64,000 nt of DNA from contig JAGIQG010000001.1 of assembly GCA_024679065.1 (NCBI GenBank), positions 151,404,001 through 151,468,000 on the forward strand. The letters are read 5' to 3'. Below the pieces are notes generated by a model, which saw nothing but the letters and a program-made list of their open reading frames with translations, ran no database searches and was not told the DNA's origin. Source of the stretch: Sphyrna mokarran (taxonomy: Eukaryota). Positions 2,132 to 63,726 of the stretch are shown here, in pieces. The position numbers and the translations under genes were made by a program. Every line of letters starts with the position of its first letter. Within the stretch, counting starts at the first letter, position 1.

Positions 2132-4179
2132 ACTGAACTAAGCTTCTTATAAAAGTTAACCTTGCCCTAATCCTGAACTTGAATCTTCCTTTCTTCCTGC
2201 CCACCTTCATGTCCTCATTAAGCTAAATTTGTTCACCTGCAGTTCCCTAAACTGCTAGCAGTCCAACTTCCCTTCCTGCCCTTTACATTAGTTGATATTG
2301 GTTCTCTTTGGTCCCTTTTCTTTGCTCTGAACTTGCAAATTTGTACCCCATTTCCAATTCCTCAGAACTCTTCAAAATAAGCAATTTCTAAATCATGGAC
2401 ATTTTTCCTGGAGCTCTCTTTTAAATGTCTAAATAAGCCACGTTACTGAAATGACTTTTAAGTTTCCATTGAAATCTTGTGACTTGTGTAATTAATCCCT
2501 TCTCAACACATCTGCAGCTTTTGTCACAGTTGACAACACAATGCCTCTAGTTTTAGAAGACTATTAAATAAGGTGAGAGAAGAAACCAGTTACCCAAACA
2601 TCCATTTGCCATCCTCATTATCCAGCTGGATGTAACTTCTCTCACTAGTCTCATTTTTATTTGTTGTCATAGCCAGAGAATAACTTACTGGTTTCTGTTT
2701 CTACATTAGCATTCATACCTCCATTGTCCCCTAAGCATCTTTCCTTGGTCCCCACCTCTTTGCCACCAACGAATTGCCAGTTGCCATTATCCAAAGAAAC
2801 ATAGTGCTGGTTCTCACTTCTCAGTATAGTGTCCTAATTCCAACCATCTTCAGCTACTTCAAGGTAAATAACATATCTTGAAGTGGACGTTATTTGGAAT
2901 GAGTTGCTTTACTTTTGGATAGGAAAAAAATTACAAAGTACTAATAAAACTATTACAAAATAATACTGAAAAGGTCATGCAGAGCGTATGAATATCAATA
3001 CATAGCATTATTGGTGTTTAAAGTCTCTTTAGAATGGTTTTGATGTCTGCTTTATTTGAGAAGACAGCATGTGACGTCTGGGAATATAGATTCATCAGTC
3101 TTAGATGTCTTAATTTATCTGTAGATATCAGTACACCCTGTAGAACTTGATTAAAACAAACACTAATCGATACGTTTTAATTGAGAAACTCCTTTGCCTT
3201 GATATGTTTTTATTATATCTGTCAATGCTTGATACAAGTCGATTTAAAAATGCAGAATAGTTTTGCAAAACTTGCAAAGTTGCATGGATTACAAGTTTGT
3301 ACAAAATGCATATAAGATCAGTGCTTTGAAGGTGATTGTGTTAAATATAATAACAATTTCAACGAATATATATTCTTAAGTCATAAATATTTTTTAAAAA
3401 TTAGTCACTAAAGCTAATTACAGAACTTTTATTTCTAAACTTAAAAAATCAAAAATGGTTACATACTGTGAAACAAAGTAGCTCTTGTAAACATCACGAG
3501 TTAAACTGCACCAATTTAGTGCACAAGGCTAATATTTTAACAGCTTTTTTTCTTTGCACAATAGTTCTTTCAATTTAGAGATCACAACTGAAGTTTTAAT
3601 TGCTAAGGAGGTGGATAGTTCACACCGGTGTTGGTCAACATTGACATCTTGCATCACTGGTTTAAGAGCCAAGTGCTTTTTCTGTCTTGTCAAATGTGTG
3701 TGTGATGTTAACAAAGATCACGTCGTGTGTTAAGCTACTGTCCCAGAATTCAGCAGAAAATCATATTAGGTTGGCATACTTTGATTATTTCTCTAATGCC
3801 TATAATTAAATTACAAACTAATTTTATCAAACAGCTTTTCTACAAATGGTCTCCACATTGGTGAGTATTGAATAAGGGATGTAAATATAACATAACCACT
3901 AGTTGCTCCAGCAAAACACCCACCTTATTCTTACAACTATCAAAAAAAAAACTTGCCAGAAGGGATGGCATGGCTGAGGCAGGTAGCATTGTCACAGTTT
4001 AAGCTTATTGTTTGCTTGAGGGAGCCAGGAACAGAAAGATATGGAAGATGTGTAGAGGTAATTAAAAAGTGGTGTATAATGCTTTTATAGTTTAGTTGCG
4101 CCAAGTAGCCCATTTGTAGTCTGTGGATTATGTGGCATGAAGCATTATTGTAAAATATTTTGTCTTTTGTGACTTTCAG

Positions 4180-9093: not shown

Positions 9094-9450
9094 GAAAATG
9101 AGTCGTCCAAACCTCAACAAGCTCTCAAAGTGGAGCAAGAAGAGCAAGAGGAATTGGATTTCATGTTTGATGAAGAAATGGAACAGATGGAAGGACGCAA
9201 GAATACCTTCACTGATTGGTCAGATGATGACTCAGACTATGAAATTGATGATCGTGATGTGAACAAGATCCTGATTGTAACTCAGACCCCTCCACACATG
9301 CGCAAACATCCGGGTGGCGACCGTACTGGAAATCATGTTTCACGAGCAAAAATTACAACAGAGTTGGCAAAAGCTATTAATGATGGCTTATACTACTACG
9401 AACAAGACCTTTGGATGGAAGAAAATGGGCCAGAATATTCAACAATAAAG
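9094..9450 (+). CDS. LARP1B: LARP1B coding exon (EELDFMFDEEMEQ...DYEIDDRDVNKILIVTQTP...HPGGDRTG...INDGLYYYEQDLW)
   Basis: tttatttgtAG acceptor, AAG|GTgaat donor, 357 nt = 119 codons; strongly conserved LARP1-family motifs; overlaps ORF 9130..9489. Confidence 0.96.
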
Positions 9451-10329
9451 GTGAATTACATGCTGGCTATGGATTATGAATCTTTTTAATTTGTAGCTAT
9501 ATCAAATGCAATTGTTTTGAATAATGAGGTGTCTCTGATAAAGGGATCATCAAATGTATGTGCCAAATTTTATTACACCTTAAATCAAATATTCTGTTAA
9601 GTCCTATCCGTGATGGTGTACTCAGCATACCATAAGATATTTTTTGTAAAAACCCAACCTTTCAAAATGATGTATGGTGTACTGACCTACATATGAGTAT
9701 GACCTGTTTCTCCCTTTCTATTTTTAATTTTGTTGGAATTCAACCCAGTCTTCTGGAGCGAAGACATATGTATCTCATTATTTGAAACTTGTCGGATGAA
9801 ATATTGTCACTAGAACTAACTATTACATTACAGGCTTTGTATAATGTATAAATAATGCTTACATTGAAAACAGGCAGCATATAAAAGAACGAAAAATGTT
9901 AAAATATAATTTAGCCTTGTACTCATCCATCTTTAATACAGAAGAAATACTTAGTTCTGAATGGGAAGATGGGAAATATAAATTGGGGAAATATAAGTAT
10001 CAGTGCCCCAAAATTTGAGCATTATTGAGCCTTTATCTTTTCTGCACTTGAAGTTTACTTGCAGTTGGGAATGGATGTAATGCCTGGAGTGAAACACCTG
10101 AAATGAATTCTCAATTTGAAGTTGGTATCTATAATTTACTGTCTCTTCAATTGGGTGTCTCTTCACATGAAGAGTGCTGCTTTGTTAAATTTGATCTTTT
10201 AAGTGAGGCCTCATCTAAAGCAGGAAGGGTCCAAATGCCTTGACCATTTTTTCCCCTCCTTACATAACACCAAAATCAAACCACTTATTCACCTCGTTTG
10301 GTTACTTACATTACCCTGTGTCCCATGTG

Positions 10330-16744: not shown

Positions 16745-19700
16745 CAGTACAAATGGGTATGATCTAGTGGCCCTTACAGAAATGTGGTTGCAGGGTGACT
16801 GGGAATTAAATATCCAGGGGTATCAGACACTTCGGAAGGATAGACAGGAAGGAAAAGGAGGTGGGGTAGCTCTGTTAATAAAAGAATGACATCAGGGCGA
16901 TAGTAAGTGACGATATAGGCTCTAAGAAGCAAAATGTGGCATCGTTGTGGATAGAGATAAGGAGTAGTAAGGGGAGAAATTCACTGGCGGGTGTGGTCTA
17001 TAGGCCCCCAAATAATAACTTTGAGATGGAGCAGGGTTAAAACATGCAAATAATGGATGCGTACAAAAATGTAACAGCAATAATCATGGGGGATTTTAAC
17101 CTGCATATTGATTGGTTGACTCAAGTCGGACATGGTGGACTTGAAGAGTTCTTAGACTGCTGTCAGAATAGTTTCCTCGAACAGTATGTTACAGAACCTA
17201 TGAGGGAGCAAGTTGTCTTGGATCTGGTCTTGTGTAATGAGACAGGTAGAATTAAAGATCTTTTGTGAGGAATCCTCTTGGGATGAGTGATCACAGTATA
17301 GTTGAATTTCTAATACAGATGGATGGTGAGAAAGTAAGGTCCCAAACCAGTGTCCTCTGCTTGAACAGAGGGGAGTACAATAGGATGAGGGTGGAACTGG
17401 CTAATGTAGACTGGGAGTGCAGACTAGTTGGTAGGACAACTGAGGAACAGTAGAGGACTTTTAAGGAGATTTTTGTCAGTACTCAGCAAAAATATATTCC
17501 AGTGATAAAGAAGGAATGTAAGAAAAGGGATAACCAGCCGTGGTTATTGAAGGAAATAAAGGAGATTATTAAATTAAAAACCGATACTTAGAGTGCCAAA
17601 ACTATTGGGGAATTGAAAGATTAGGAAAGCTTTAAAAAAAAACAAAGAATGACTAAGAAAACGATAAAGAAAGGAAAGATAGATTATGAAACTAAATTAG
17701 CGCAAAATATAAAAACTGATTCTTGAAAGTTTTTACAAATATCTAGAAAGGAAGAGAATGGCTAAAGTAAATGTTGGACTCTTAGAAGACAGGAAGGGGA
17801 ATTTAATAATGGGAAACAAGGAATTGCCGTAGGCTTTGAATAAGGTTTTCATGTCAGTCTTCATGGTAGAAGACGCAAATAGCTTACCGAACATAGGACT
17901 GTAGGGGGTGAGGTCCTTTTTAAAATGATTACTATTACTAAAGAGAGTGTGCTTGGTAGACTAATGTGATTAAAGGTAGACAAGTCCCCAAGCCCAGCTG
18001 GAATGCATCCCAGGATACGGAAAGAAATGGCGGAAGTAGTAGCAGATGCGTTAGTAATTTATCAAAATTCGCTGGACTCTGGGGAAGTGCCGGCTGATTG
18101 GAAAATAGTTAATGTTACGCCGCTGTTTAAAAAAGTAGACAAAATGTGGGTAACTACAGGCCAGTTAGCTTAACATCGTAATTGGGAAAATGCTGGAATC
18201 CATCATTAAAGAAGAAATAGCAGGATACCTGGAAAAAAATGGTTCGATCAAGCAGACGCAGCATGCATTCATGAAGGAGAGTCGTGTTTGACGAATTTAC
18301 TGGATTTTTATGAAGATGTAATGAGTGCAGTTGACAGAGGGAAACCAGTGGATATGGTGTTTTTAGATTTCCAGAAAGCATTCGATAAGGTGTCTCACAA
18401 AAGGTTGCTGTGGAAGATTAAGGTACATAGAATTGGGGGTAAAGTGTTAGCGTGGATTGAGGATTGGCTGTCTAACAGGAAGCAGAGAATTGGAATTAAT
18501 GGGTGTTTTTCTGGTTGGCAGTTGGTGACTAGTGGCATGCTGTAGGGATTGGTGCAGAAGCCTTATCTGTTTACCACATACATATACAATCTGGAGTGGG
18601 GGACCAAGTGTAGGGTAACAAAATTTGCCGATGACACACAGATGAGTGGGAAAGCGAATTGTGTGGAGGGGCGCAGAAAGTCTGCAGAGAGATTTGGATA
18701 CGCTGAGTGAGAGGGTGAAGATCTGGCAGATAAAGTATAATGTTGGCAAGTGTGAGGTTATCCACTTTAGAAGAAATAATAGTAAAATGGACTATTATTT
18801 AAATGATGAAAAACTACAACATGCTACTGTGCAGAGGGACTTGCGGGTCCTTGTGCATGAATCACAAAAACTCAGTCTGCAAGTGATCAAGAAGGCAAAT
18901 GGAATGTTGGCCTTTATTGCGAGGGGGGATGGAATATAAAAGCAGGGAGGTCTTGCTGCAGTTGCACAAGGTAATGGTGAGGCCACAACTAGAGTACTGT
19001 GTGCAATTTTGGTCCTCTTATTTGCAAAAGAATACGTTGGTCTTGGAGGAAACACAGAGAATGTTCACCAGATTGATATCAGAGATGAGGGGGGTTAGCT
19101 TATGAGGAGAGATTGAGTAGATTGGGCCTGTACTCGTTGGAGTTTAGAAGGCTGAGGGGGATCTTATAGAGACATATAAGATAACGAAGGGCCAGACAGG
19201 GTAAAAGCAGAGAGATTCTTTCCACTTCGAAAGGAAACAAGAACTAGAGGACACAGCCTGAATATAAGAGGGAGCCAATTTAGAACAGTTGAGGAAGAAC
19301 AAAGAACAAAACAGCACGGGAAACAGGCCCTTCGGTCCAACGTGTCCGTGCCGCCACCCCGATGTTCCCACCTCTACCCATGATCCCTGTCAATGTTTAT
19401 AGATCTATGGATTAAAAACCAAATTTGGGGGAATTTGTTTTGCCAATTAGCATAAGAGCACATCTTTGGGATATGGGAGGAAACCGGAGCACCCGGAGAA
19501 AACCCACGCAAGCATGGGGAGAATGCGCAAACTCCCACAGACACAGCCCAAATCCATGTATCTGCACTGCACAGCGATAATCACTGAGCTGTTGTGTTGC
19601 CCATCAAATGGTCCAGGTCAAGCATACACTAACGACATGAAGCACTAGGATACTCTCAAAAAAAAATCCAAAAGCTGTCCTCTCATGACCCATCGTGTGT

Positions 19701-20637
19701 ATGCCTCTTGTTAGACAACAAGGCGGACCAAAGCACTTGTAGGATAAAAACAAATACATTGATATCATCGTCTATTTACACACTTCCCAGGGACTTCCAA
19801 GGCTCATGATCCCTATTTTAAATCAGTTTTCTATACCCCTCCATTCCCATTCTGTTCATGTGCCCATCTAAGTATCTCTTAGATAACTCCAGAGCACCTG
19901 CCTCCACCTCTTGGCAGTGCATTCCATACCCCCACCACCCTCTGTGAAAAAACTCCCTCTAGCATCCAAATTATATCTTACCTCCCTCACCCTGAGCCTG
20001 TTACTCCTCGTGCTATTTGAATCCATCCTAGGAAAAAGCTTAACCCTGTTTACTGTATCTGTACCCCTCATAATCTTGTACACCTCTATTAGATCTCCTC
20101 TAAGTCTACGTCTTTCTACGAAAAACAGCCCCAATTTGCCTAACATCTCCTCATAACTCAGACCTTTCACCTGTAAGGGTCAGGTTCCCCATTCTTAGGC
20201 TCTAGGTCCACCACCTTACTAAGCCTCCTTCCATTATTGCCTTGTTCTCCCTGACTAAAAATGCACCTTCCAATTGCAGCTCTAGTTGCTTGACCCAAGC
20301 CCTCAGATGCTGCACCTCCAAACACTTGATGCATATGTGGACTTTCGGGAGACGTTTCGCCTCCAGGAACTCCCACATATGACACCGTACACAGGTGAGG
20401 CATCTCTCTGAGGATACTGAATCTCAGAAGTTCTCTGTCCATTGAAGCAGTGGAGACTACCTCGTTGAATATGTTTAAGTCACAGGTAGATTTCTGATCA
20501 ATGAGGGAGTTAAGGGTTATGGGAAGCAGGTGGGTAAGTGGAGCTGAACCACTTTCAGATCAGCCATGATCTTATTGAATGGCAGGACAGGCTCGAGGGG
20601 CTATCTGGCCTACCCCTGCTCCTATCTGTTATGCTGT
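16745..20637 (+). mobile_element. CR1 LINE ORF2 (APE endonuclease + RT), degenerate, interrupted at 19297-20400
   Basis: IIMGDFNLHIDW, LGMSDHSIVEF, TNLLDFYE..VDMVFLDFQKAFDKVSH, VRPQLEYCVQFWS (ORFs 17044-19105); 3'UTR resumes at ~20402 and ends ~20637. Confidence 0.93.
19297..20400 (-). mobile_element. CR1 subfamily A with long composite 3'UTR; internally deleted (ORF1 start fused to ORF2 C-terminus)
   Basis: 20167-20400 matches ORF1 start of the copy at 32694; 19868-20166 GLSYEEMLGKLGLF..RRRLRGDLIEVYKI; 19297-19820 composite 3'UTR ending in (TTCTTTG)n. Confidence 0.9.
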
Positions 20638-20764
20638 ATGACTCAACATTGATGTATTAAATCTCAGGAGATCCCATCATAGGGTGATTATGCTGAGTTC
20701 ATAAATATTCAGTTATGCTACAAGTATTATTGATGAATAATAAAAATGTGTAATTCATACATAA

Positions 20765-20900
20765 TGTAGAGATGCTGGTGTTGAACTGGGGTAAACACAG
20801 TAAGCAGTCTCACAACACCAGGTTAAAAGTCCAACCAGTTTATTTGTTAATCCTGCGTAAACTTTTGGAAATGCTGTTCCTTCGTTAGCCGTGTGGAAAG
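20765..20900 (-). mobile_element. Penelope pseudo-LTR fragment with decayed hammerhead
   Basis: same family as 48862-49204 and 63503-63726 (cacagtaag..gtctcacaacaccaggtta..gtccaaccagtttattt). Confidence 0.75.
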
Positions 20901-20905
20901 TTCCA

Positions 20906-32693: not shown

Positions 32694-35605
32694 ATGAAGA
32701 ACATTGCCTATTGTCAGTGTCATATGTGGGAGTTCCTGGAGGCAAGATGTCTCTCGAAAGCCCACATACGCGTCAAGTGTTTGGAGCTGCAGCATGTGAG
32801 GGCTTCGCTCAAGCAACTAGAGCGGCGATTGGAAGATGTATTTTTAGTCAGGGAGAATGAGGCAGTAATGGAAGGAAGGCATAGTAAGGTGGGTGGACCC
32901 AGAGTCAGAGGGGAATCTGACCCTTACAGGTGGGTTACTATAAGGAAGGGGAAAAAGGAGCGGGGCAACAGTCCAAAAACTTCCCCAGTGGCAGTCCCCC
33001 AAAACATTGAAGGTGGAGAAGTAAAAAAGGTAAGGCAGGAGGACCAGAGTACCTCAGAGGGGATGAAGGAGGCTAGAAAGAGATAGTGGTGGGGGATGGG
33101 AGGATTAAAGGAATAGATAGGCGGTTCTGTAGTCAAAGGCGGGACTCCAGGATGGTAGTTTGCTTCCCGGAGCAGAGGTGCAAGATGCCTCTGACAGGGT
33201 AGAGCGCATTTTGAAGGGTAAGGGGACCCAGGCAGGTGTATTTGTTCACATAGGAGAGAAGGATGTAGGAAGGAAGAGCAGGGAGGATATACGAAGACAG
33301 TTTAGGGAGTTGGGTGGATAGGCTGAACAGCAAGACGTCCAGGGTGGTGATCTTAGGGTGCTACCAGGGCCAGGAGAAATGAGATCCTACTGCTGAATGC
33401 ATGGCTGAAGGATTGGTATAGGGCAGAGGGTTTCATATGGGAAGTATATACTGGGAAGTATTTGTGAAAGAAGGGCACCTGTATAGCAGGGATGGGGAAC
33501 GCTTGAATGGGAAGGGCATGAATATCTTACCTGGGAGGTTACCTGGAGTGTTTTGACAAAGTTTAAACTAATAGGGAGGTGGGGAGGGGATGAGACCAAT
33601 AGCTGGTTAGGGAGTGAGGTGGGAGATAGAGTAAGCTTGGATGAGAGGAAATACACCAGGGAGAAGGAGGTTCTGAGTGGGCTTGGAGGTCTGGAATGCA
33701 TCTGTTTCAATGTGAGGAGCATAACAGGAAAAACGGGAGAAGGAGGTTACGAGTGGGCTTGGAGGTCTGGAGTGCGTCTGTTTCAATATAAGGAGCATAA
33801 CAGGAAAAACAGATGAACTTAGGGCCTAAGTGTTTGCGAGGAACTTGGATGTGGTTGCCATGACAGAGACATGGTTAAAGGAAGGGAAGAAGTGGCAGCT
33901 GAATATTCCTGGGTATAAGTGTTTCAGGCGTGACAGAGGAGAGGGTCCAGAAGAGGTGGGGGGAGTGGTGTTGTTAGTTAGGGACAGCATCACAGCAGTG
34001 CAGAGGGAGAACAATATAGAGGAGTTAGGAGTGGAGTTGAAGAATAGAAAAGGAGTGATTACTATGCTAGGGTGTATTTTAAGCTACTCAACAGCTCGCG
34101 GGTAGTTGAAGAAGGCATGTCTAAAGACATTTTGGATAGGTGCAGAAAGAACAGAATCGTTATAGTGGGAGATTTTAATCTCCCTGAGGTGGATTGGAAA
34201 GTACCTAGAGCTGAGGGTTCAGATGGGGAGGAATTTATAAAATGTGTACTGGAAGGATCGTTGGAGCAGTATGTAGCTAGTCTGACTAGAGAGGGGGCTA
34301 CATTGGGTTTAGTTCAGAGTAATGAGCCAGGGCAGGTGGTTGATGATGTAGTAGGGGAACATGTGGCTAACAGTGACCACAATTCTGCCTATTTTAGGAT
34401 ACAGATGGAAAAGGATGCTTGTTGCCCTAGGGGGAGAATGCTGAATTGGGGGAAGGTTAACTACAGTCAGATTAGGCAGGAACTTATGGAAACTGATTGG
34501 GAACGGTTGTTCAAGGGTATGTCCACGCTAGCCATGTGGGATTCTTGCAAGGGAATACTGAAAATGTTGCAAGAAAGATATGTGCCAGCTAAGAAGGATG
34601 GGAAAGGGTAGGATTAGAGAGCCATGGATTATTAGGGATCCAGTTCTGGTCGCCTTACTACCGGAAGGACATGGAGACTCTGGAGAGAGTGTAGAGGAAG
34701 TTTACCAGGGTGCTGCCTGGTATGGAAGGTCTGAGTTACGAGGAGAAGTTAGGCAAATTGGGACCGTTTTCCTTAGAAAGACGTAGACTTAGAGGAGATC
34801 TAATAGACGTGTGCAAGATTGAGGGGTATAGATAAACAGGGTTAAGCTTTTTCCTAGGATGGACTCGAATAGCAGGAGGGGTCACGGGCTTAAGATGAGG
34901 GGGGTACGGTATAATTTGGATGCTAGAGGGAGTTTTTTCACACAGAGGGTGGTGGGGGTATGGAATGTGCTGCCAAGTAAAGTGGTGGAGGCAGGCACTA
35001 TGGTATTATTTAAGAAATACTTAGATGGGCACATGAACAGAATAGGAATGGAGGGGTATAGAAAACTGATTTAAAATAGGGATCATGAGCCTTGGGAGTC
35101 CCTGGGAAGTGTGCAAATAGATGATGATATTGATGTATTTATTTTTATCCCACAGGTGCTTTGGTCCACCTTGTTGTCTAACAAGGGGCATACACGCGAT
35201 GGGTCGTGAGAGGGCTGCTCTTGGATTTTTTTTCAAGAGTATCCTAGTGTTTCATGACATTAGTGTACACTTGACCTGAACCATTTGATGGGCAACACGA
35301 CAGCTCAGTGACTATCGCTGTGCTGTGCAGATGCATGGATTTGGGCCTATGTCTGTGGGAGTTTGCGCATTCTCCCTGTGCTTGCGTGGGTTTTCTTCGG
35401 GTGCTCCAGTTTCCCCCCTCATCCCAAAGATGTGCTCTTAGGCTGATTGGCAGAACAAATTCTCCCTAAATTGTCTCAAATTTGTTTTTTTAATCCATAG
35501 ATCTATAAACATAGACAGGGATCATGGGTAGGAGTGGGAATATCGAGGTGGCAGCGCAGGTTCGTTGGGCCGAAGGGCCTGTTTCCCGTGCTGTTTTGTT
35601 CTTTG
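32694..35605 (+). mobile_element. CR1 subfamily A: ORF1 + endonuclease, RT core deleted, composite 3'UTR
   Basis: ORF1 CQCHMWE...KCLELQ..L.QLERRL (zinc finger/leucine zipper), EN VAMTETW, IVGDFNLP, NSDHN; jumps at ~34640 to QFWSP; 3'UTR 35075-35605. Confidence 0.92.
33659..33810 (+). repeat. 76-bp tandem duplication at the ORF2 start of the CR1
   Basis: units 33659-33734 and 33735-33810 (gggagaaggaggtt..gagtgggcttggaggtctgga..ataacaggaaaaac). Confidence 0.92.
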
Positions 35606-42724: not shown

Positions 42725-45030
42725 CAACAAAGAACAAAACAGCACAGGAAACAGGCCCTTCAGCCTAATGAGCCCATGTCGCCACCCCGCTGTTCTCACC
42801 TCTACCCGTGATCCCTACCAATGTTTATAGATCTATGGATTAAATAACCAAATTTGAGACCACTTAGGGAGATTTTGTTTTGCAAATTAGCCTAAGAGTA
42901 CATCTTTGGGATGTGGGAGGAAACTGGAGCACCTGGAGAAAACCCACGCAAGCATGGGGAGAATGTGCAAACTCCCACAGACACAGGCCTAAATCCATGC
43001 ATCTGCACAGCACAGCAATAGTCAGAGCTCTTGTGTTGCCCATCAAATGGTCCAGGTCAAGCATACACTAACAACGTGAAGCACTAGGATACTCTCAAAA
43101 AAAATCCAAGAGAAGCCCTCTCATGACCCATTGTGTGTATGCCCCTTGTTAGACAACAAGGTGGACCAAAGCACCTGTAGGATAAAAACAAGTACATCAA
43201 TATCATTGTCTATTTACACACTTCCCAGGGACTCCCAAGGCTCGTGATCCCTATTTTAAATCAGTTTTCTATACCCCTCCATTCCTGTTCTGTTCATGTA
43301 CCCATCTAAGTATTTCTTAAATAACTCCAGAGTACCTACCTCCACCACTTGGCAGTGCATTCCATATCCCCTCTGTGAAAAAACTCACTCTAACATCCAA
43401 ATTATACCTTACCCACCGCCCCCACCCCCAGCCTGAGCCCATGACCCCTTGTGCTATTCAAGTTCATTATAGGAAAAAGCTTAACCCTGTTCACTCTATC
43501 TATACCCCTCATAATCTTGTACACCTCTATTAGATCTCCTCTTTCTAAGGAAAACAGCCCCAATTTGCCTAACCTCTCCTCGTAACTCAGACCTTCCATA
43601 CCAGGCAGCATCATGGTACACCTCCTCTGCACTCTTTCCAGAGTCTCCACATTCTTCTGGTAGTAAGGCGACCAGAACTGGACACAGTATTCCAAATGAG
43701 GTCTAACCAATGTTTTATACAACTGCAACATTAAAGACCAGCTCTTGTACTCTAGACCTCTTCCTATAAAGGCTAGCGTACCATATGCTTTCTTCACAAC
43801 CTTCTCCACTTGCTCTGCCACCTTCAAAGATTTGTGCACCTGCACCCCCAGGTCTCTCTGCATTTCTATCTTCTTAGTAGGTCTACCCTTTATCATATAC
43901 CTCCCCCCTACATTCTTTCTCCCGAAATGCATCATCTCACATTTATCAGGATTGAATTCCATCTGCCATCTATCTGCCCAAGCTACCAACCTATCTATGT
44001 CCTGCTGCATCGCCTGACAATGCTCCTTGCTATCCACAAGTCCAGCCATCTTTGTATTTTCTGCAAACTTGCTGATCACTCCACTTACTCCCTCTTCCAA
44101 GTCATTTATATATAACAAATAGAAGAGGTCCCAGTACCGAACCCTGCAGCACACCACTAGTGACCAACCTCCAGCTAGAAAAACATCCTTCCACTATTAC
44201 TCTCTGTCTCCTATTACCAAGCCAGTTACTTATGCATCTAGCTACCTGTCCATGTATCCCATGAGCCTTGACATTTTCAACTAATCTCCTATGAGGGACT
44301 TTGTCAAACGCCTTACTGAAATCCACATAGACGACATCAACGGCTCGCCCTTCGTCGACTGTTTTCATCACCACCTAAAAAAATTCTACCAGATTTGTAA
44401 GGCAAGACCTCCCCTTAACAAAGCCATGCTGCATATCCCTAATCAGATCGCAATGCTCTTAAGTACCAGTACATCCTATCTCTAAGAATTCCCTCCAACA
44501 GCTTCCCTACCACTGATGTCAAACTCACTGGCCTATAATTTATCTCTACTACCCTTTTTAAACAACGATACAACATTAGCTATTCTCCAGTCCTCTGGGA
44601 TCTCACCTGTGTCCAAAGAAGAGATAAAGATTTGCATCAGAGGCCCAGCAATTTCACCTTGCACCTCCCTAAGCAGCCTGGGATAAATGCCATCAGGCCC
44701 TGGAGATTTATCAGTTTTAATGCTACCTAGAAGATCTAACACTTCCTCGGTATGGATATTTCCCTCAACTGGTCCACAGCTCCCTCAGAGACAGGAGTTG
44801 TCAACAAGCCCCTCTCCTTCGTGAATACCGATGTAAAGTATTCATTCAGGATCTCCACCATTCCCTCGGGCTCTAAGCACAGTTCCCCTCCTCTGTCCCT
44901 AAGAAGTTCAGTTTTCCCTCTAACCACCCTTTTGTTCCTAACATAGGAGTAAAAAGCCTTTGGATTTTCCTTAATCCTATCTGCCAAAACCATTTCATGC
45001 CCCCTTTTTGCCCTAAGGGACTGCTTTGTC
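42725..45030 (-). mobile_element. CR1 subfamily A, 5'-truncated, with composite 3'UTR
   Basis: ORFs 43402..44157, 44102..44374, 44533..44742, 44736..44993 ([35 protein letters not shown]); 3'UTR 42725-43260. Confidence 0.95.
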
Positions 45031-48861: not shown

Positions 48862-49204
48862 GTGAGGTAGAAATGCTGGTGTTGTTGGACTGAGGTAAAC
48901 ACAGTAAGAGGTCTCACAACACCAGGTTAGAGTCCAACCAGTTTTTTGATAGTAATTCCACAAGCTTTCGGGAACAGTGTTCATCAACTTGCATTGTCTG
49001 CATCTTTAAGACTTGAATTGCAGGTTAGCTGTAAAGACTTGCATTCTCATCAATATTCTGTAAACTGTGTGTGACTTTATATGCCCTCTCTGATCAGAAT
49101 CTTCCACGTACCTGACGAAGGAACACAGTTGCCGAAAGCTTGTGGGATTAGCATCAAATAAATTGGTTGGACTCTAACCTGGTGTTGTGAGACTTCTTAC
49201 TGTG
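48862..49204. mobile_element. Penelope remnant with inverted pLTR pair
   Basis: cacagtaagaggtctcacaacaccaggttagagtccaacca...caagctttcgg inverted as ccgaaagcttgtg...tggttggactctaacctggtgttgtgagacttcttactgtg. Confidence 0.88.
49109..49144 (+). ncRNA. Minimal type-I hammerhead ribozyme motif (Penelope-associated)
   Basis: TAC-CTGACGA-A-GGAAC ACA GTTGCC-GAAA-GCTT-GTG. Confidence 0.65.
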
Positions 49205-49987
49205 GTTGTGACTATGCAGGAAACTGGTGCAAACACCAGATAAGTAACTTTAATCTATTTTCAATATTATTTAAATGTCATTGTCAAGCCCGGAACTGAA
49301 TTCTCCTACCCCACCAGTACAAATTCACTCTGGTGTGGTTTAGAGTAGCTCCCCGTTTTTGGTGAACTTTCAGACACCCTACTGGAGTGAAGGGGCAGCA
49401 ATTGGGGTCCCCCAGGGAGTCAGGTGGGTGACACCCTAGGCATAGACACCCTGGCAATGCCCAAGGGACAAAGTGTCATGCCTGGCAGCATCTTGGCACT
49501 GGGCAATGCCAAGGGGCAGGGCCAAGACGGTGATTGTGCACTCACTCTAAATAGGTCACCTCATTCACATGAAAGCTACGCTTAACTCTCATTAGTTTAC
49601 CTCCAGCTTTCGGGTATCGTTTTGAAACCTCCAGGTTAGTTAGGTGCACCTGTTTTGTAGTTTTGCTGGGAGAGGTCCCATTGCCAGTCTGCATTCGGAT
49701 TGATCAGGACTGGAAGGAGGCCAACAAGCGGGGCTGGCTCAGGAGAATGGTCTGGTGAGGTTGGGGTCTACCTCCCATAGGGGTCAGCTAGGGTGAGATG
49801 ATCATCATTGCTGGGGGTGGGGGGATCAGTCGGGGCTGGCTAGGAATAGTTGTGAGGGCTGTGATTGGACAATGGGGGCAGGCGATGCAGGGGCAGCACT
49901 GCAGGGTTCCTAGGCTGGCCAGCAAACTGCAAACTGACAGTCCAGGGCCACTATGCGTGCACAGAGTTCTGGAACTGTCAGATTCAA

Positions 49988-50470
49988 AGAACAAAGAACA
50001 AAACAGCACGGGAAACAGGCCCTTCGGCCCAATGAACCCATGCCGCCACCCCAATGTTCCGACCTCTATCCGTGATCCCTATCAATGTTTATAGATCTAT
50101 GGATTAAATAACCAAATTTGAGACAATTTAGGGAGAATTTGTTTTGCCAATTAGCCTAAGAGCACATCTTTGGGATGTGGGAGGAAACCGGAGCTCCCGG
50201 AGAAAACCCACGCAAGCAGGGGGAGAATGCGCAAACTCCCACAGACACAGGCCCAAATCCATGTATCTGCACAGCACAGCGATAGTCACTGAGCTGTCGT
50301 GTTGCCCATCAAATGGTCCAGGTCAAGCATACACTAACAATGTGAAGCACTAGGATACTCTCGAAAAAGATCCAAGAGCAGCCCTCTCATGACCCATTGC
50401 GTGTATGCCCCTTGTTAGACAACAAGGTGGACCAAAGCACCTGTAGGATAAAAACAAATACATCAATATT
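49988..50470 (-). mobile_element. Solo composite 3'UTR of CR1 subfamily A (no ORF2 sequence)
   Basis: near-identical to 42725-43205; 5'-truncated just upstream of the structured domain. Confidence 0.93.
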
Positions 50471-52268: not shown

Positions 52269-54243
52269 GAACAAAGAACAAAGAACAACACAGCACCGGA
52301 AACAGGCCCTTCGGCCCAACGAGCCCGCGCCGCCGTCCTAACGTCTTAATGTCGTATAGGGACCAATTTGTTACCCAATCAGCCTAAGAGCACATTTTTG
52401 GGTTGTGGGAGGAAACCGGAGCACCCGGAGAAAACCCACGCAACCACGGGGAGAACGCGCAAACTCCCGCAGACACAGGCCCAAATTCATGTGTCTGCAC
52501 AGCAACAGCGATAGTCTCTGAGCTGTCATGGTGCCCATCAGTTGGTCCAGTTTAAGCATACACTGACGACGTGAAGCACTAGGCCACTCCTGAAGTAACA
52601 TCCAGGAGCTGCCCTCGCACGACCTGCCAAATACATGGACCTTGTTGGTCAACAAGGTGGACCGAACATCCTGTGGAAACAAACAGGATATTTAAACAGT
52701 CCTACTATATCCCTCTATCTGCAGACCGCTCATGTGGCTGTCCAAGAGACCCTTAAACAACCCTAGCGTGCCTGCTCCCACCACCTTACTCGGTAGTGCA
52801 TTCCACACCCCCACTACCCTTTGTGTGAAAAACTGCCCTTTAATATTTGTCTTATACATAGCCCCCCTCACCCTAAAGCCATGACCCCTCGTTCTGTCCT
52901 TTTGTAATGGTGGAAAAAGCTTACCACCATTTACTCTATCTATACCCCTCATAATCTTATATACCTCTAATAGATCCCCTCTCAGCCAACGTCTTTCAAG
53001 GGAAAACAACCCTAGTGCGTTCAATCTTTCCTCGTAAGACAGCCTTTCCATACCAGGCAGCATCCTGGTAAATCTCCTCTGCACTCTCTCCAGGGCCTCC
53101 ACATCCTTCCGGTGGTAAGGCGACTAGAACTGGATGCAGTATTCCAAGTGAGGCCTAACCAACGTTCTATACACTTGCAACATTAGACTCCTACTCTTGT
53201 ATTCTATACCTCTTCCTATGAAGGCTAACATACCATACGCTTTCTTTATCACATTCTCCACCTGTACTGACGCCTTTAGAGACTTGTCAACCTGCACCCC
53301 CAGGTCTCTCTGCATCTCTATACTCCGGATAGTTTTACCTTTTATCCTATAACTCCCCTCTACATTATTCCGGCCAAAATGCATCACCTTGCATTTATCC
53401 GGATTAAATTCCATTTGCCATCTATCTGCCCAATCTACCAGCCTATCTATGTCCTGTTGTATTGCCTGGCACTGCTCCTCAGTTCCTGCCAATCCAAGCA
53501 TCTTAGTGTCATCAACAAATTTGCTGATCACACCATCTACCCCCTCTTCCAAGTCATTTATATAAACCACAAATAGAAGAGGTCCTAGTACTGAGCCCTG
53601 TGGCACACCACTAGTGACACACCTCCAGTTGGAAAAAGAGCCTTCCACTACTACCCACTGTCTCCTCCTCCCAAGCCAGTTCTCAACCCATCTACATACC
53701 TGGCCCTGTATACCATGCGCCTTCACCTTTTCTATCAGCCTACCATGAGGAACCTTGTCAAACGCCTTACTGAAATCCATATAGATGACATCAACGGCTT
53801 GTCTTTCATCAACCGTTTTTGTCACCTCTTCAAAAAATTCCACTAGATTCGTAAGGCACGACCTCCCCTTAACGAAGCCATGCTGCGTATCCCTGATCAG
53901 ATCGCAGCGCTCCAGATGCTCATACATCCTGTCCCTGAGGATCCCCTCCATTAGCTTACCTATAACTGAAGTCAAGCTCACCGGCCTATAGTTCCCTGGG
54001 TTATCCCTCTGACCCTTTTTAAACAATGGTACCACATTTGCTATCCTCCAATCCTCTGGGACCACACCTGTGTCCAAAGAAGAGACAAAGATTTGCGTCA
54101 GAGGATCAGCAATGTCATCTCTCACCTCCCTTAGCAGTCTGGGGTAAATGCCATCAGGCCCTGGAGCTTTATAAGGCTTTATGCTGCCTAAAAGCCCCAA
54201 CACTTCTTCCCTTGTAATGGATATTTCCTTTAACGGGTCCTCA
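52269..54243 (-). mobile_element. CR1 subfamily B, young 5'-truncated copy with composite 3'UTR
   Basis: ORF 53124..54203 (359 aa RT) continues in the same frame into 52692..53102 after a single TAG at a Trp position; 3'UTR 52269-52691. Confidence 0.96.
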
Positions 54244-56294
54244 AATTCCTCAAAGCCGTGAAGACACCACTTGCTGAATTACATCACTCCCAGAAGAAAA
54301 GTTCCTGACAGAGTAAGCTTATGATGGATTGTGTTAAAGTACTTGTTTAATTGTAAATAGCTTGATGTTTATTTGTATATGATAGTAAAGGACTTATGGT
54401 GTGAGGATGTAATAGCGAGCTACTTTTCAGGTTGGTTCCAGGGTTATGTGACCCGGTTGACTAATCGGACTGCTGCATTCAAACTTTGGGACTGGGTGTG
54501 GGCTTTCCCAATCACTCTGACTCTGCAGTTGAAGTGGTCAGTAGCACATTTCTTGTACTTGTAGTTTATTCATCACAATAAATTGTTAATTACTAAACAT
54601 GGTGGTCGTCAATCCCTTGAGATATCACAATCCCAGTTCAGTTTGAACCCTTCTCGTAAAATACCCTGCTCTATAATATCTCTTAAGTTATTCAATTTTC
54701 TAGGTTTTAGACTTTTTTTTAACCTATTGCCTGAAGAGTTCCTGCAGCTTTTCATATTCGTGGGATATGGTGGCGCTGATGGCCAGCATTTCGTGCCCAT
54801 TCCTGTTGCTGTTGTTCGGAGGGCAGTTGAGAGTCAACCACATTGCTATAGCTGTAGAGTCACTTTTACGCCAGACCAAGTAAGGCATGCAGATTTGTTT
54901 CCTTAAAGGACATTAGTGAGCTGCTTGCTGATCTCCTGCTTTCATCTGTCCTTCTTGTCTGCCGGCCAACGAGATTTCATATCTTAACTTTACTGTTGGT
55001 ACTGCTTCCAGGTCAAATGGAATTCTAATGCTCGTCATTACCCTTTTACAATTGAAACAATCTCTTTAACTTTTCAGTGTTAAAGCCAATTACAGATTCC
55101 TGAGACATTTTAAAGAAATATTGTACTGCTGCTGGTCAAAGATAGACATATGGCACCCCATCCTAGAAAAAATAAAACTTTACTGTGATAACATTTTCTT
55201 TGCAACAAATGTTTGAAAGACACAAAGTTTTTAATATCATAAACACTTTAACAACCAACATTTTACATGTTGCACAGGTAACATTTTTACAAAACAAGCT
55301 TCATTACAAAAATACAAATATTATTTTACAATTTTAATAAACTCCATTAATTGAACGTATTCAAGATATTGCTACCATATCTTCCTTTTGATGGGGCAGC
55401 TTTAACTATATTGTTTTTGCATACATTAGTGTGAATTGCTACATCAAATTCCAATGAAACAGTCTTTAAATCTAGGTTAAAATGTCGTATATTGATTTTT
55501 GCATTCTTTGTGTTTTTTAAACGATCTGTATTGGATTGTGTACAGTTTGAATCCTGAGAGCGATTTTGTAGTCAGCCCAAAGTTTTACAATTTGTTTGGT
55601 TTAGTTTCTGGTGGCTCGTAGCTGTCAATATGAGTCCAAGGTGAATTTCTCGGTCATATTGCTTTTTACCTTCTGGCTACCCTCTTTTAATCTTTTTTAA
55701 AATTAGACTTTAAGTTGTGATCAGTGTTTTTGAAATACACAATGGACCACTCTGCTCAGTTTTTTAACTTTTGAACTGTATTTTGATCCACGTCTGTATG
55801 TTCTTTTAATGTCCAAGTCTTGGGAAAGAAGTTTGAATTAACCAAACATTGAATCATTCTTCATAATTGAAATGACCCCAATCTACTAAAATCCATGACT
55901 ATTTTCAACAATAAACGCCACTCATCCTGAGAGGAGTCATGTCCATTGTTTAAAAAATAGACCTATTCAATTCAGGAATGTCTTCAGATGGCCACAGGAT
56001 GTGTGTAGTGGTACCTTTTCATGAGGGATGTACCTTTTTTTTCCTCTGTTAACAATGAGTGTTTTTGAATACACAAGCTAGGTCAGTTGACCCTCAGTGG
56101 TCATTTGTGCATTAGTACATTGAAATGAAAATTTTATTTTAAAAAGAATTAAGAATCCACATGGAATAAAGTTTGTATCTCAAAGGTTATGAACATAATA
56201 TGCCTTCGTGGAGCATGACAATGCTTTGTAGTACATTATTATCGAGCAATCCTGTAATATTCAACATTGTTTCAGATCTTCATATGAATATGCA

Positions 56295-58026: not shown

Positions 58027-58989
58027 ACTACCGGAAGGACATGGAGACTGGAGAGAGTGCAGAGGAGGTTTACCAGGATGCTACCTGGTATGGAAGGTCT
58101 GAGTTACGAGGAGAGGTTAGGCAAATTGGGACTGTTTTCCTTGGAAAGACGTAGACTTAGAGAGATCTAAAAGAGGTATACAAGATTATGAGGGGTATAG
58201 ATAGAGTGAACAGGGTTAAGCTTTTTCCTAGGATGGACTCGAATAGCAGGAGGGGTCACGGGCTTAAGATGAGGGGGGTACGGTATAATTTGGATCTAGA
58301 GGGAGTTTTTTCACACAGAGGGTGGTGGGGGTATGGAATGCGCTGCCAAGTAAAGTGGTGGAGGCAGGTACTCGAGTTATTTAAGAAATACTTAGATGGG
58401 CACATGAACAGAATGGGAATGGAGGGGTATAGAAAACTGATTTAAAAATAGGGATCGTGAGCCTTGGGAGTCCCTGGGAAGTGTGTAAATAGATGATGAT
58501 ATTGATGTACTTGTTTTTATCCTACAAGTGCTTTGGTCCACCTTGTTGTCTAACAAGGGGCATACACGCGATGGTCGTGAGAGGCCTGCTCTTGGATTTT
58601 TTTTCGAGAGTATCCTAGTGCTTCACGTCGTTAGTGTACGCTTGACCTGGACCATTTGATGGGCAACATGACAGCTCAGTGACTATCGCTGTGCTGTGCA
58701 GATACATGGATTTGGGCCTGTGTCTGTGGGAGTTTGCGCATTCTCCCCGTGCTTGCGTGGGTTTTCTCCGGGTGCTCCGGTTTCCTCCCACATCCCAAAG
58801 ATGTGCTCTTAGGCTAATTGGCAAAACAAATTCTCCCTAAATTGTCTCAAATTTGGTTTTTTAATCCATAGATCTATAAACATAGACAGGGATCACGGGT
58901 AGAGATGGGAACATCGGGGTGGCAGTGCGGGGTTGTTGGGCCGAAGGGCCTGTTTCCCGTGCTGTTTTGTTCTTTGTCCTTTGTTCTTT
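58027..58989 (+). mobile_element. CR1 subfamily A 3' end with composite 3'UTR
   Basis: [24 protein letters not shown]; 3'UTR 58445-58989 ending ttttgttctttgtcctttgttcttt. Confidence 0.95.
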
Positions 58990-63320: not shown

Positions 63321-63502
63321 CCGCCTCAAAGTCCAGGCACCCCACAGTCAAAAGTGCATTTATCTCGGGCCTATAGGTGCAGCTTATAGGCATGGAACTG
63401 GAACTGCTTCCATGTTCTGTTGGCTAACGCACTGTTTCGACCACACCGGCGTACATTTTCCATTACTCAGGTCTGGAATTGAACCCTGGTCCCTTGTGCT
63501 GT

Positions 63503-63726
63503 AAGAAGTCTCACAACACCAGGTTAGCATCCAACCAGTTTATTTGATAGTCATCTCACAAGCTTTCGGAAATGGTTCAAACCTTCCACACACCTGACGA
63601 AGGAAAACTGTTTCAGAAAGCTTGTGAGATGACTATCAAATAAACTGGTTGAACTCTAACCTGGTGTTGTGAAACTTCTTACTGTGTTTACCCCAGTCCA
63701 ATGCTGGCATCTCTACATCACGACTA
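63503..63726. mobile_element. Penelope mini-element, ~67-bp inverted arms, hammerhead core, 12-bp TSD CCCTTGTGCTGT
   Basis: arms 63501-63567 and 63616-63682; CAC-CTGACGA (63594-63600)...GAAAGCTT-GTG; TSD at 63491-63502 and 63727-63738 inside a minus-strand tRNA-like SINE head. Confidence 0.9.

Follow-up and report, generated by a model that had tools for sequence, protein, structure and literature searches.

A compact three-way-junction RNA fold of 121 nt, lying between the ORF2 stop codon and the canonical tail of a CR1 LINE lineage in Sphyrna mokarran, was identified as a real and probably selected accessory RNA structure. It was studied in a window of 64,000 nt (the whole stretch of contig JAGIQG010000001.1 that was analyzed) and in further copies sampled across the genome. 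For CR1 and L2 elements, a small terminal stem-loop is generally considered sufficient. A function of the fold in RNA stability, export, or RNP formation, as put forward in a sequence-only reading of this DNA, is plausible; in the form favored here, the fold may be a cis-acting, shape-recognized stability and packaging element for full-length CR1 RNA, to which we assign a probability of about 0.5.

The main copy of the window is a 5′-truncated subfamily A element on the forward strand. Self-alignment and alignment to other copies placed the 3′ end of its ORF2 at 58027 to 58445, with the stop codon at 58443 to 58445. Reading 5′ to 3′, this is followed by a remnant of the post-stop spacer (58446 to 58500), a 3′ splice-site-like signal comprising branch-like bases, a pyrimidine tract, and CAG/G (58501 to 58528), the fold (58534 to 58654), the decayed tRNA-derived head of an HE1-type V-SINE (58661 to 58720), a V-domain (58721 to 58792; 1 to 6 differences per 72 nt between subfamilies), a short conserved block and variable spacer (58793 to 58920), and the canonical CR1 terminal stem-loop with its microsatellite tail (58921 to 58989). 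An ordinary V-SINE copy found in the genome sample (locus L090) formed part of the basis for identifying the SINE head, along with the old copies and the published pair named below, which we take to be HE1, as we take the adjoining block to be a V-domain. The HE1/HER1 pair is tabulated in PMC3747384, and a V-domain length of ∼80 bp is given in PMC4824008. The B-box region of the SINE head survives only in the oldest subfamily (160 old copies hold it). The SINE head and V-domain (58661 to 58790) also form predicted hairpins in all subfamilies, and an 18-nt deletion of the B-box shortened a hairpin without abolishing it.

As had been read from the sequence, the terminal stem-loop and microsatellite are separate from the fold; they are present and nearly invariant (0 to 4 differences in 48 positions), and the three-way junction lies ∼270 to 400 nt upstream of this tail. 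UTRs carrying the module are about 430 to 750 nt in length, and the other CR1 ends listed from the sample mostly have short UTRs of roughly 60 to 100 nt. Copies of the youngest subfamily, C (98 to 99% alike; L121 to L127), end mostly in a short A run, not a microsatellite. The features of a CR1-type LINE were all found, namely, ORF1, ORF2 with a reverse transcriptase, a 5′ truncation series, and a terminal stem-loop followed by a short repeat. The reverse transcriptase domain matched RVT_1 (E value, 2.8e−35) in a sister copy at 53127 to 54278, the 5′ ends of two subfamily C copies coincided at a point 4.6 kb upstream, and among 25 additional 5′ ends, 24 ran on into ORF1. We presume the CR1 clade name from familiar features of ORF2 and the tail, the ORF2 tree being one without a named reference.

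The predicted fold comprises a closing stem of 6 to 7 bp, a hairpin of 7 bp, and a long arm of ∼30 bp. Its closing stem pairs 58534 to 58540 with 58648 to 58654, and both the coordinates and the stems agreed with those given in the sequence-only reading. The three-way shape was likewise borne out, the 121-nt RNA having a minimum free energy (MFE) of −49.5 kcal/mol (z = −4.52) that none of 200 shuffled sequences equaled. In the consensus sequences of all five subfamilies the sense strand folded far better than the antisense strand (z of −1.3 to −6.1 versus −0.3 to −2.8), although the oldest majority consensus by itself folds weakly (z, −1.3). Mean pair probabilities were 0.88 to 0.99 for the closing stem and arm tip versus 0.51 to 0.89 in the mid-arm, where the register is uncertain. 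The previously described U-A to C-G change at the arm tip was confirmed, though only for a B sub-lineage, which reached it via U.G, the B majority state (tallies: UA, 13; UG, 5; CG, 3). Some of the G-U pairs quoted for the B copy of the window rest on letters that deviate from the B consensus. The direction proposed for the change in the arm loop has to be reversed, as the B loop is near the ancestral one and the T-run is a derived state in A. The pyrimidine tract and CAG/G immediately 5′ of the fold, which are kept, had been overlooked; in the main copy itself AA replaces AG.

All six composite UTRs of the window contain the domain, as had been claimed, on the evidence of alignment and covariance-model matches. 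Beside the main copy (model match at 58524 to 58660, forward strand), subfamily A copies of the fold were found at 19603 to 19740 on the reverse strand (124.9 bits), 35152 to 35289 on the forward strand (129.6 bits), and 43042 to 43178 on the reverse strand (135.5 bits), with a further A copy truncated within the UTR at 50308 to 50444 on the reverse strand (alignment and model match) and a subfamily B copy at 52537 to 52674 on the reverse strand (135.8 bits). Genome-wide, the arm motif had at least 22,377 exact matches and a control motif had none; seven copies in 60 evenly spaced 10-kb stretches scale to roughly 30,000. Five subfamilies within one CR1 clade, designated P, O, A, B, and C, carry the fold, and A is the commonest; their consensus sequences were built from 145 copies, a biased sample mostly chosen by similarity search. 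The module also lies on contigs of the coded organisms A, H, and J, the letters in J being of the older or B type; the RNA status of these runs is a guess. Across 679 kb, the covariance model matched only the 13 known copies, which argues against a structural homolog in other families. A pattern search of viral contigs gave five matches, all attributable to chance, a search of metagenomes gave none, and a protein scan recovered five distant CR1s, all without the module.

Several other features were observed around the copies. An open frame at 9094 to 9486 of the window (forward strand) had no Pfam match but looks like what we take to be a LARP1-type exon, so the copies probably lie within introns. 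A 180-nt self-inverted, MITE-like repeat is found at 63501 to 63682, with related copies near 20764 to 20902 and 48867 to 49207. At two sampled loci (L168 and L170, about 2340 to 3450), several near-identical repeats of a small contig (C1082) place a subfamily B copy beside a tandem zinc-finger array.

To assess selection on the shape, the predicted energies of the subfamilies were compared with those obtained after placing the same substitutions randomly. From an O-type ancestor at −49.9 kcal/mol, subfamilies A, B, and C stand at −50.6, −56.7, and −50.9 kcal/mol after 13, 13, and 25 substitutions, respectively, versus −38.0, −39.3, and −34.6 kcal/mol with random placement, and the observed values were reached in 1, 0, and 0 of 500 trials; the branches of B and C are partly shared, and the A string retained one minor letter. 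Random placement between A and B matched the observed stability in 0 of 200 trials in the direction A to B and in 2 of 200 from B to A, and among 10 control tests on ORF2, one equaled the fold in one direction (1/200). Two-sided changes included those from C-G through U.G to U-A, from G-C to A-U, and from U-A through U.G to C-G, although only three to four such events are independent. Among 26 natural copies, 93% of cells pair, and 22 two-sided cells were counted versus 10.5 after shuffling (0/500), a count inflated by kinship and made on a structure derived from the same families. A pair-breaking variant at columns 63/94 recurs in 6 of the 26 aligned copies. Subfamily C has lost 3 nt of the hairpin and is predicted to re-form a shorter one.

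The expectation that stems would be more conserved than loops did not hold, since variation was seen in 25 of the 92 paired columns and in 12 of the 30 unpaired ones, a difference that is not significant (p = 0.25). Divergence of the fold between A and B is 21/122, with 15/51 at four-fold ORF2 sites; between B and C it is 18/119 versus 33/540 in ORF2 (p = 0.002) and 1/72 in the V-domain. Both the V-domain and the tail are better conserved than the fold, which makes hitch-hiking of the fold possible. Given a fold that stays stable under change, stems that evolve no more slowly than loops, and a sequence that on one branch changes faster than ORF2, it appears that the shape is kept and not the letters. 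Stability retained on three branches relative to random placement, together with a block that survived deletion and replacement of its flanks, supports the earlier suggestion of an additional selected RNA module, and on these predicted structures selection acting on the shape of the fold is quite probable.

The module was probably gained once. An ORF2 tree of 48 rows (A, B, and C reduced to four rows each) grouped P, O, A, and B plus C together with four label changes, the minimum possible; two apparently short rows inside the module-bearing clade are copies cut by a locus edge. Module swapping between CR1 lineages was rejected, as the tree fits one origin. The nearest short-tailed relative, family S (527 exact matches; 30 copies aligned, L295 to L324), aligns with P continuously to just past the stop codon and again from the tail, from which it follows that ∼285 nt (spacer, tract, and arms) and the V-SINE were added between these points. 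As this short-tailed sister has no module, the module is an acquired accessory. A 9-nt block of S corresponds to the 3′ strand of the closing stem in P (E value of 0.98 when taken alone, but colinear) and in S closes a 6-bp hairpin across the stop codon; S is likely to represent the pre-insertion state. An insert of ∼285 nt entered a short-UTR ancestor, behind its ORF2 stop and ahead of its tail, and was then inherited vertically. No intermediates with the insert alone or the V-SINE alone were found, and the ancestral insert matched nothing in sampled loci outside the lineage beyond short tail-like or self-palindromic stretches. In its ancestral form the short hairpin is a perfect palindrome of 18 nt, suggestive of an origin by fold-back. 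An antisense CR1 tail was also considered as the origin and rejected; its strong match to C rests on derived changes and is therefore only a weak lead. Later deletions shortened the distance from stop codon to AG from ∼170 nt in P to 81 nt in A, 21 nt in B, and 20 nt in C and removed the B-box, and the downstream spacer was replaced. About 150 nt upstream and parts downstream were lost in all, the deletions halted at the tract, and the tract, AG, and fold were spared.

The tract has 13 to 15 pyrimidines in 17 positions in every subfamily, and the AG is kept, with AA in its position in only 1 of the first 100 listed subfamily A copies. In the MFE folds of O, B, and C the acceptor is paired with bases beyond the closing stem. 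A strong donor is present in the 5′ UTR of full-length subfamily C, and a direct probe found no genomic copies in which it is joined to the fold. The acceptor was preceded by foreign sequence in 63 matches versus 17,534 with the normal tract. At 32 junction loci (the first 12 listed and 20 picked by hand), three junctions join ORF2 to the acceptor, only one of them at a GT (L283); this join of a donor-like ORF2 site exactly to the acceptor could equally be a microhomology deletion. Short inverted, fold-back copies of the 5′ part of the fold precede the junction in 4 of the 32 inspected loci (L267, L275, L278, and L279). No joint or loose end fell at the acceptor among 18 of 264 loose ends listed, which come from contigs only and whose RNA status is guessed. 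A spliced non-autonomous derivative was sought and rejected, with none in 25 full-length 5′ ends (a query biased toward unspliced copies), none in the first 100 junctions of a list of 191, and none by direct probe. Spliced copies are lacking or, at most, very rare. The 5′ UTR of full-length subfamily C may hold an intron of 53 nt that genomic copies retain (L156:2636 to 2688); a strong donor is followed there by a branch-like motif and a pyrimidine tract, with an AG just before the ORF1 start.

The fold had also been suggested to be an unrecognized ribozyme, and this was not supported. Rfam 15 gave no matches in the window at the gathering threshold, and at E values of ≤10 and ≤5 none overlapped the fold in A, P, B, and C copies. 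A hammerhead core consists of CUGANGA and GAAA around a three-way junction; the CUGANGA-type heptamer is absent from both strands of all five consensus sequences. HDV-like ribozymes are nested double pseudoknots with a 3-bp P3, a P1.1, and a catalytic C in J4/2. On inspection, the consensus sequences had only 2 bp for P3, no P1.1, and a joining strand without the C. The twister-sister-like ribozyme described in PMC11620745 has 5-nt and 6-nt internal loops and a C-A cleavage site between P1 and P2, and a change of the A12C type leaves it nearly inactive. One strand agrees with this core in P, O, B, and C but in no other subfamily; its partner strand carries an additional U together with the A12C-type change, and P1 is missing. 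No hairpin-ribozyme core letters are in place in the consensus sequences, and the letters of K-turn, SECIS, IRE, Sm, and CTE motifs were absent or not conserved in place on inspection. A kissing-loop dimer was rejected, as a palindromic loop occurs in P only. Of 60 sampled copies (taken from the first 61 listed on contig C1, chosen by the arm motif, with one likely duplicate skipped), 51 reach >110 nt upstream of the fold, which makes self-cleavage unlikely. Independent 5′ ends at positions 0 to 10 of the fold numbered 4 versus 0.9 expected (post hoc P = 0.013). Genome-wide, breakpoint probes matched 63 times at the acceptor, 150 times at the stem foot, and 26 times at a single upstream control; ∼38, ∼48 (32 of the first 100 listed), and ∼13 of these, respectively, were judged by eye to be true breakpoints, the rest being small indels. 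The excess at the fold foot is mild, roughly threefold on a single control and far below 1% of copies per site, and is not a cleavage-defined end.

If the fold is a stability and packaging element, selection would act on the RNA of source elements. The tract near the stop and the compact fold would bind PTBP1- or U2AF-like host proteins or ORF1p and so protect from UPF1-type decay a UTR that the captured V-SINE has made longer, like the stability element of Rous sarcoma virus. An extended closing stem is predicted to bury the AG in part, and splicing there would be rare. This reading is supported by a predicted fold that outlasted 13 to 25 substitutions per branch and a 3-nt deletion; tract and fold lie within 20 to 170 nt of the stop, and their move toward it over time would suit a stability element. 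Against it, short-UTR CR1 families amplify without the module, the tract is single where the viral element has as many as eleven CU clusters, and the UTR, at about 430 to 750 nt, is small beside the viral one. The same tract and CAG/G, kept in five subfamilies while the tract letters changed, could instead mean that the fold lies over a genuine 3′ splice site and regulates the frequency of splicing there, in element RNA or in a read-through host transcript. The constant spacing from AG to stem, the pairing of the acceptor past the closing stem, the strong donor in C, and the L283 junction (1 of 32) are in keeping with such control, but the donor of C is linked to the fold in no genomic copy, the two other ORF2-acceptor joins are without GT, and the foreign-sequence matches and listed loose ends at the acceptor are as few as given above, so that splicing control is improbable. 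A broader and rather unlikely scenario is that the LINE made an RNA motif from scratch, with fold-back hairpins that entered the loop of a small stop-codon hairpin and became established as a three-way junction. With its buried acceptor, the motif would then recruit host splicing or decay factors and shield the mRNA, as the first element of a non-LTR retrotransposon resembling that of Rous sarcoma virus, and letters would outpace the protein code while the shape stays, as if escaping sequence-specific host silencing.

A functionless relic, in which hairpins formed by fold-back during reverse transcription were carried along with a selected V-domain and tail, is also improbable. The palindromic ancestral hairpin, the fold-back junctions at the hairpin in 4 of 32 loci, the loss of other hairpins of the same insert, the rapid B-C divergence, and the lack of a significant difference between stems and loops would all be expected of it; random placement of substitutions, however, costs 11 to 16 kcal/mol where the real branches lose none, the flanking deletions stopped at the tract, and the fold relies on G.U pairs and is specific to the sense strand. 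The 5′ edge of the fold resembles the reverse complement of CR1 tails, and an edge-to-tail duplex reaches −22.2 kcal/mol, so that the 5′ strand of the closing stem might swap to the terminal stem-loop ∼400 nt downstream and switch tail recognition by ORF2p on and off. Such a switch is very unlikely, given that the local alternative is lower (−11.8 kcal/mol for the closing duplex plus −18.5 kcal/mol for the tail hairpin), that the long-range pair appears in no whole-UTR MFE structure, that the tail shows no changes to match the variation of the three middle bases, and that the ancestral match covers only 12 of 16 bases. The partial likeness of loop letters in P, O, B, and C to the twister-sister-like core of PMC11620745, with the mild enrichment of 5′ ends, would suit a slow or conditional self-cleaving ribozyme, new or twister-sister-like, that releases a SINE-like 3′ fragment. 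The core is broken in A, the commonest subfamily, and cleavage would part ORF2 from its tail; with the Rfam, core, and upstream-extension results described above, a ribozyme is hardly to be expected. The stability and packaging reading thus remains our preferred one.

The lineage forms a datable series (the short-tailed sister, followed by P, O, A, B, and C) in which an extra RNA structure was gained and kept by shape amid sequence drift, next to a promoter-less V-domain, and it supplies natural variants for probing the accessory UTR structure of a vertebrate LINE. A functionless fold would be a commonplace detail of a repeat. A search of openly accessible literature found no paper on this fold.

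Among known systems, the retrotransposon ribozymes (HDV-like at the 5′ ends of R2, RTE, and Ingi; twister-sister-like in human L1 and OR4K15) resemble it as compact folds in LINE RNA with, in part, the same loop letters, but the present fold lies in the 3′ UTR, has none of the complete cores, and leaves no cleavage-defined 5′ end. The stringent LINE tails (ZfL2-1, ZfL2-2, and UnaL2, with CR1 HER1 and V-SINE HE1 of sharks and rays) are of the same clade type and share the terminal stem-loop and microsatellite, the stem-loop being bound by ORF2p according to PMC4176376. In contrast, the fold lies ∼270 to 400 nt upstream, is absent from the sampled short-UTR CR1 families, and was added rather than required. 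R2Bm and SART1 offer a likeness in their multi-stem non-LTR 3′ UTRs used in cis; R2Bm binding is described as dependent on two stem-loops (PMC11194090), and the SART1 UTR as recognized in trans (PMC7265360). Those structures are template-recognition signals, whereas the CR1 copies use a separate canonical tail, and no similarity is expected. The stability element of Rous sarcoma virus serves as a model of how the fold may work, as it lies directly behind a stop codon, is pyrimidine rich, and gives position-dependent protection from decay (PMC4764554 and PMC5580461); it is reported to work only near the stop codon, through pyrimidine-rich PTBP1 sites (PMC4764554). The viral element is 400 nt long, with up to eleven CU clusters and a 7-kb UTR, compared with one tract, 120 nt, and 0.4 to 0.7 kb here, and the two are not homologous. 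The SINE central domains (V, CORE, Deu, and Meta) and LINE-derived SINE bodies are likewise conserved non-coding retroposon blocks, for which RNA stability is among the roles proposed in PMC4824008, and a V-domain adjoins the fold. The fold sits upstream of the SINE head and outside it, and here it was the LINE that took SINE parts, the opposite of the flow described in PMC5786205.
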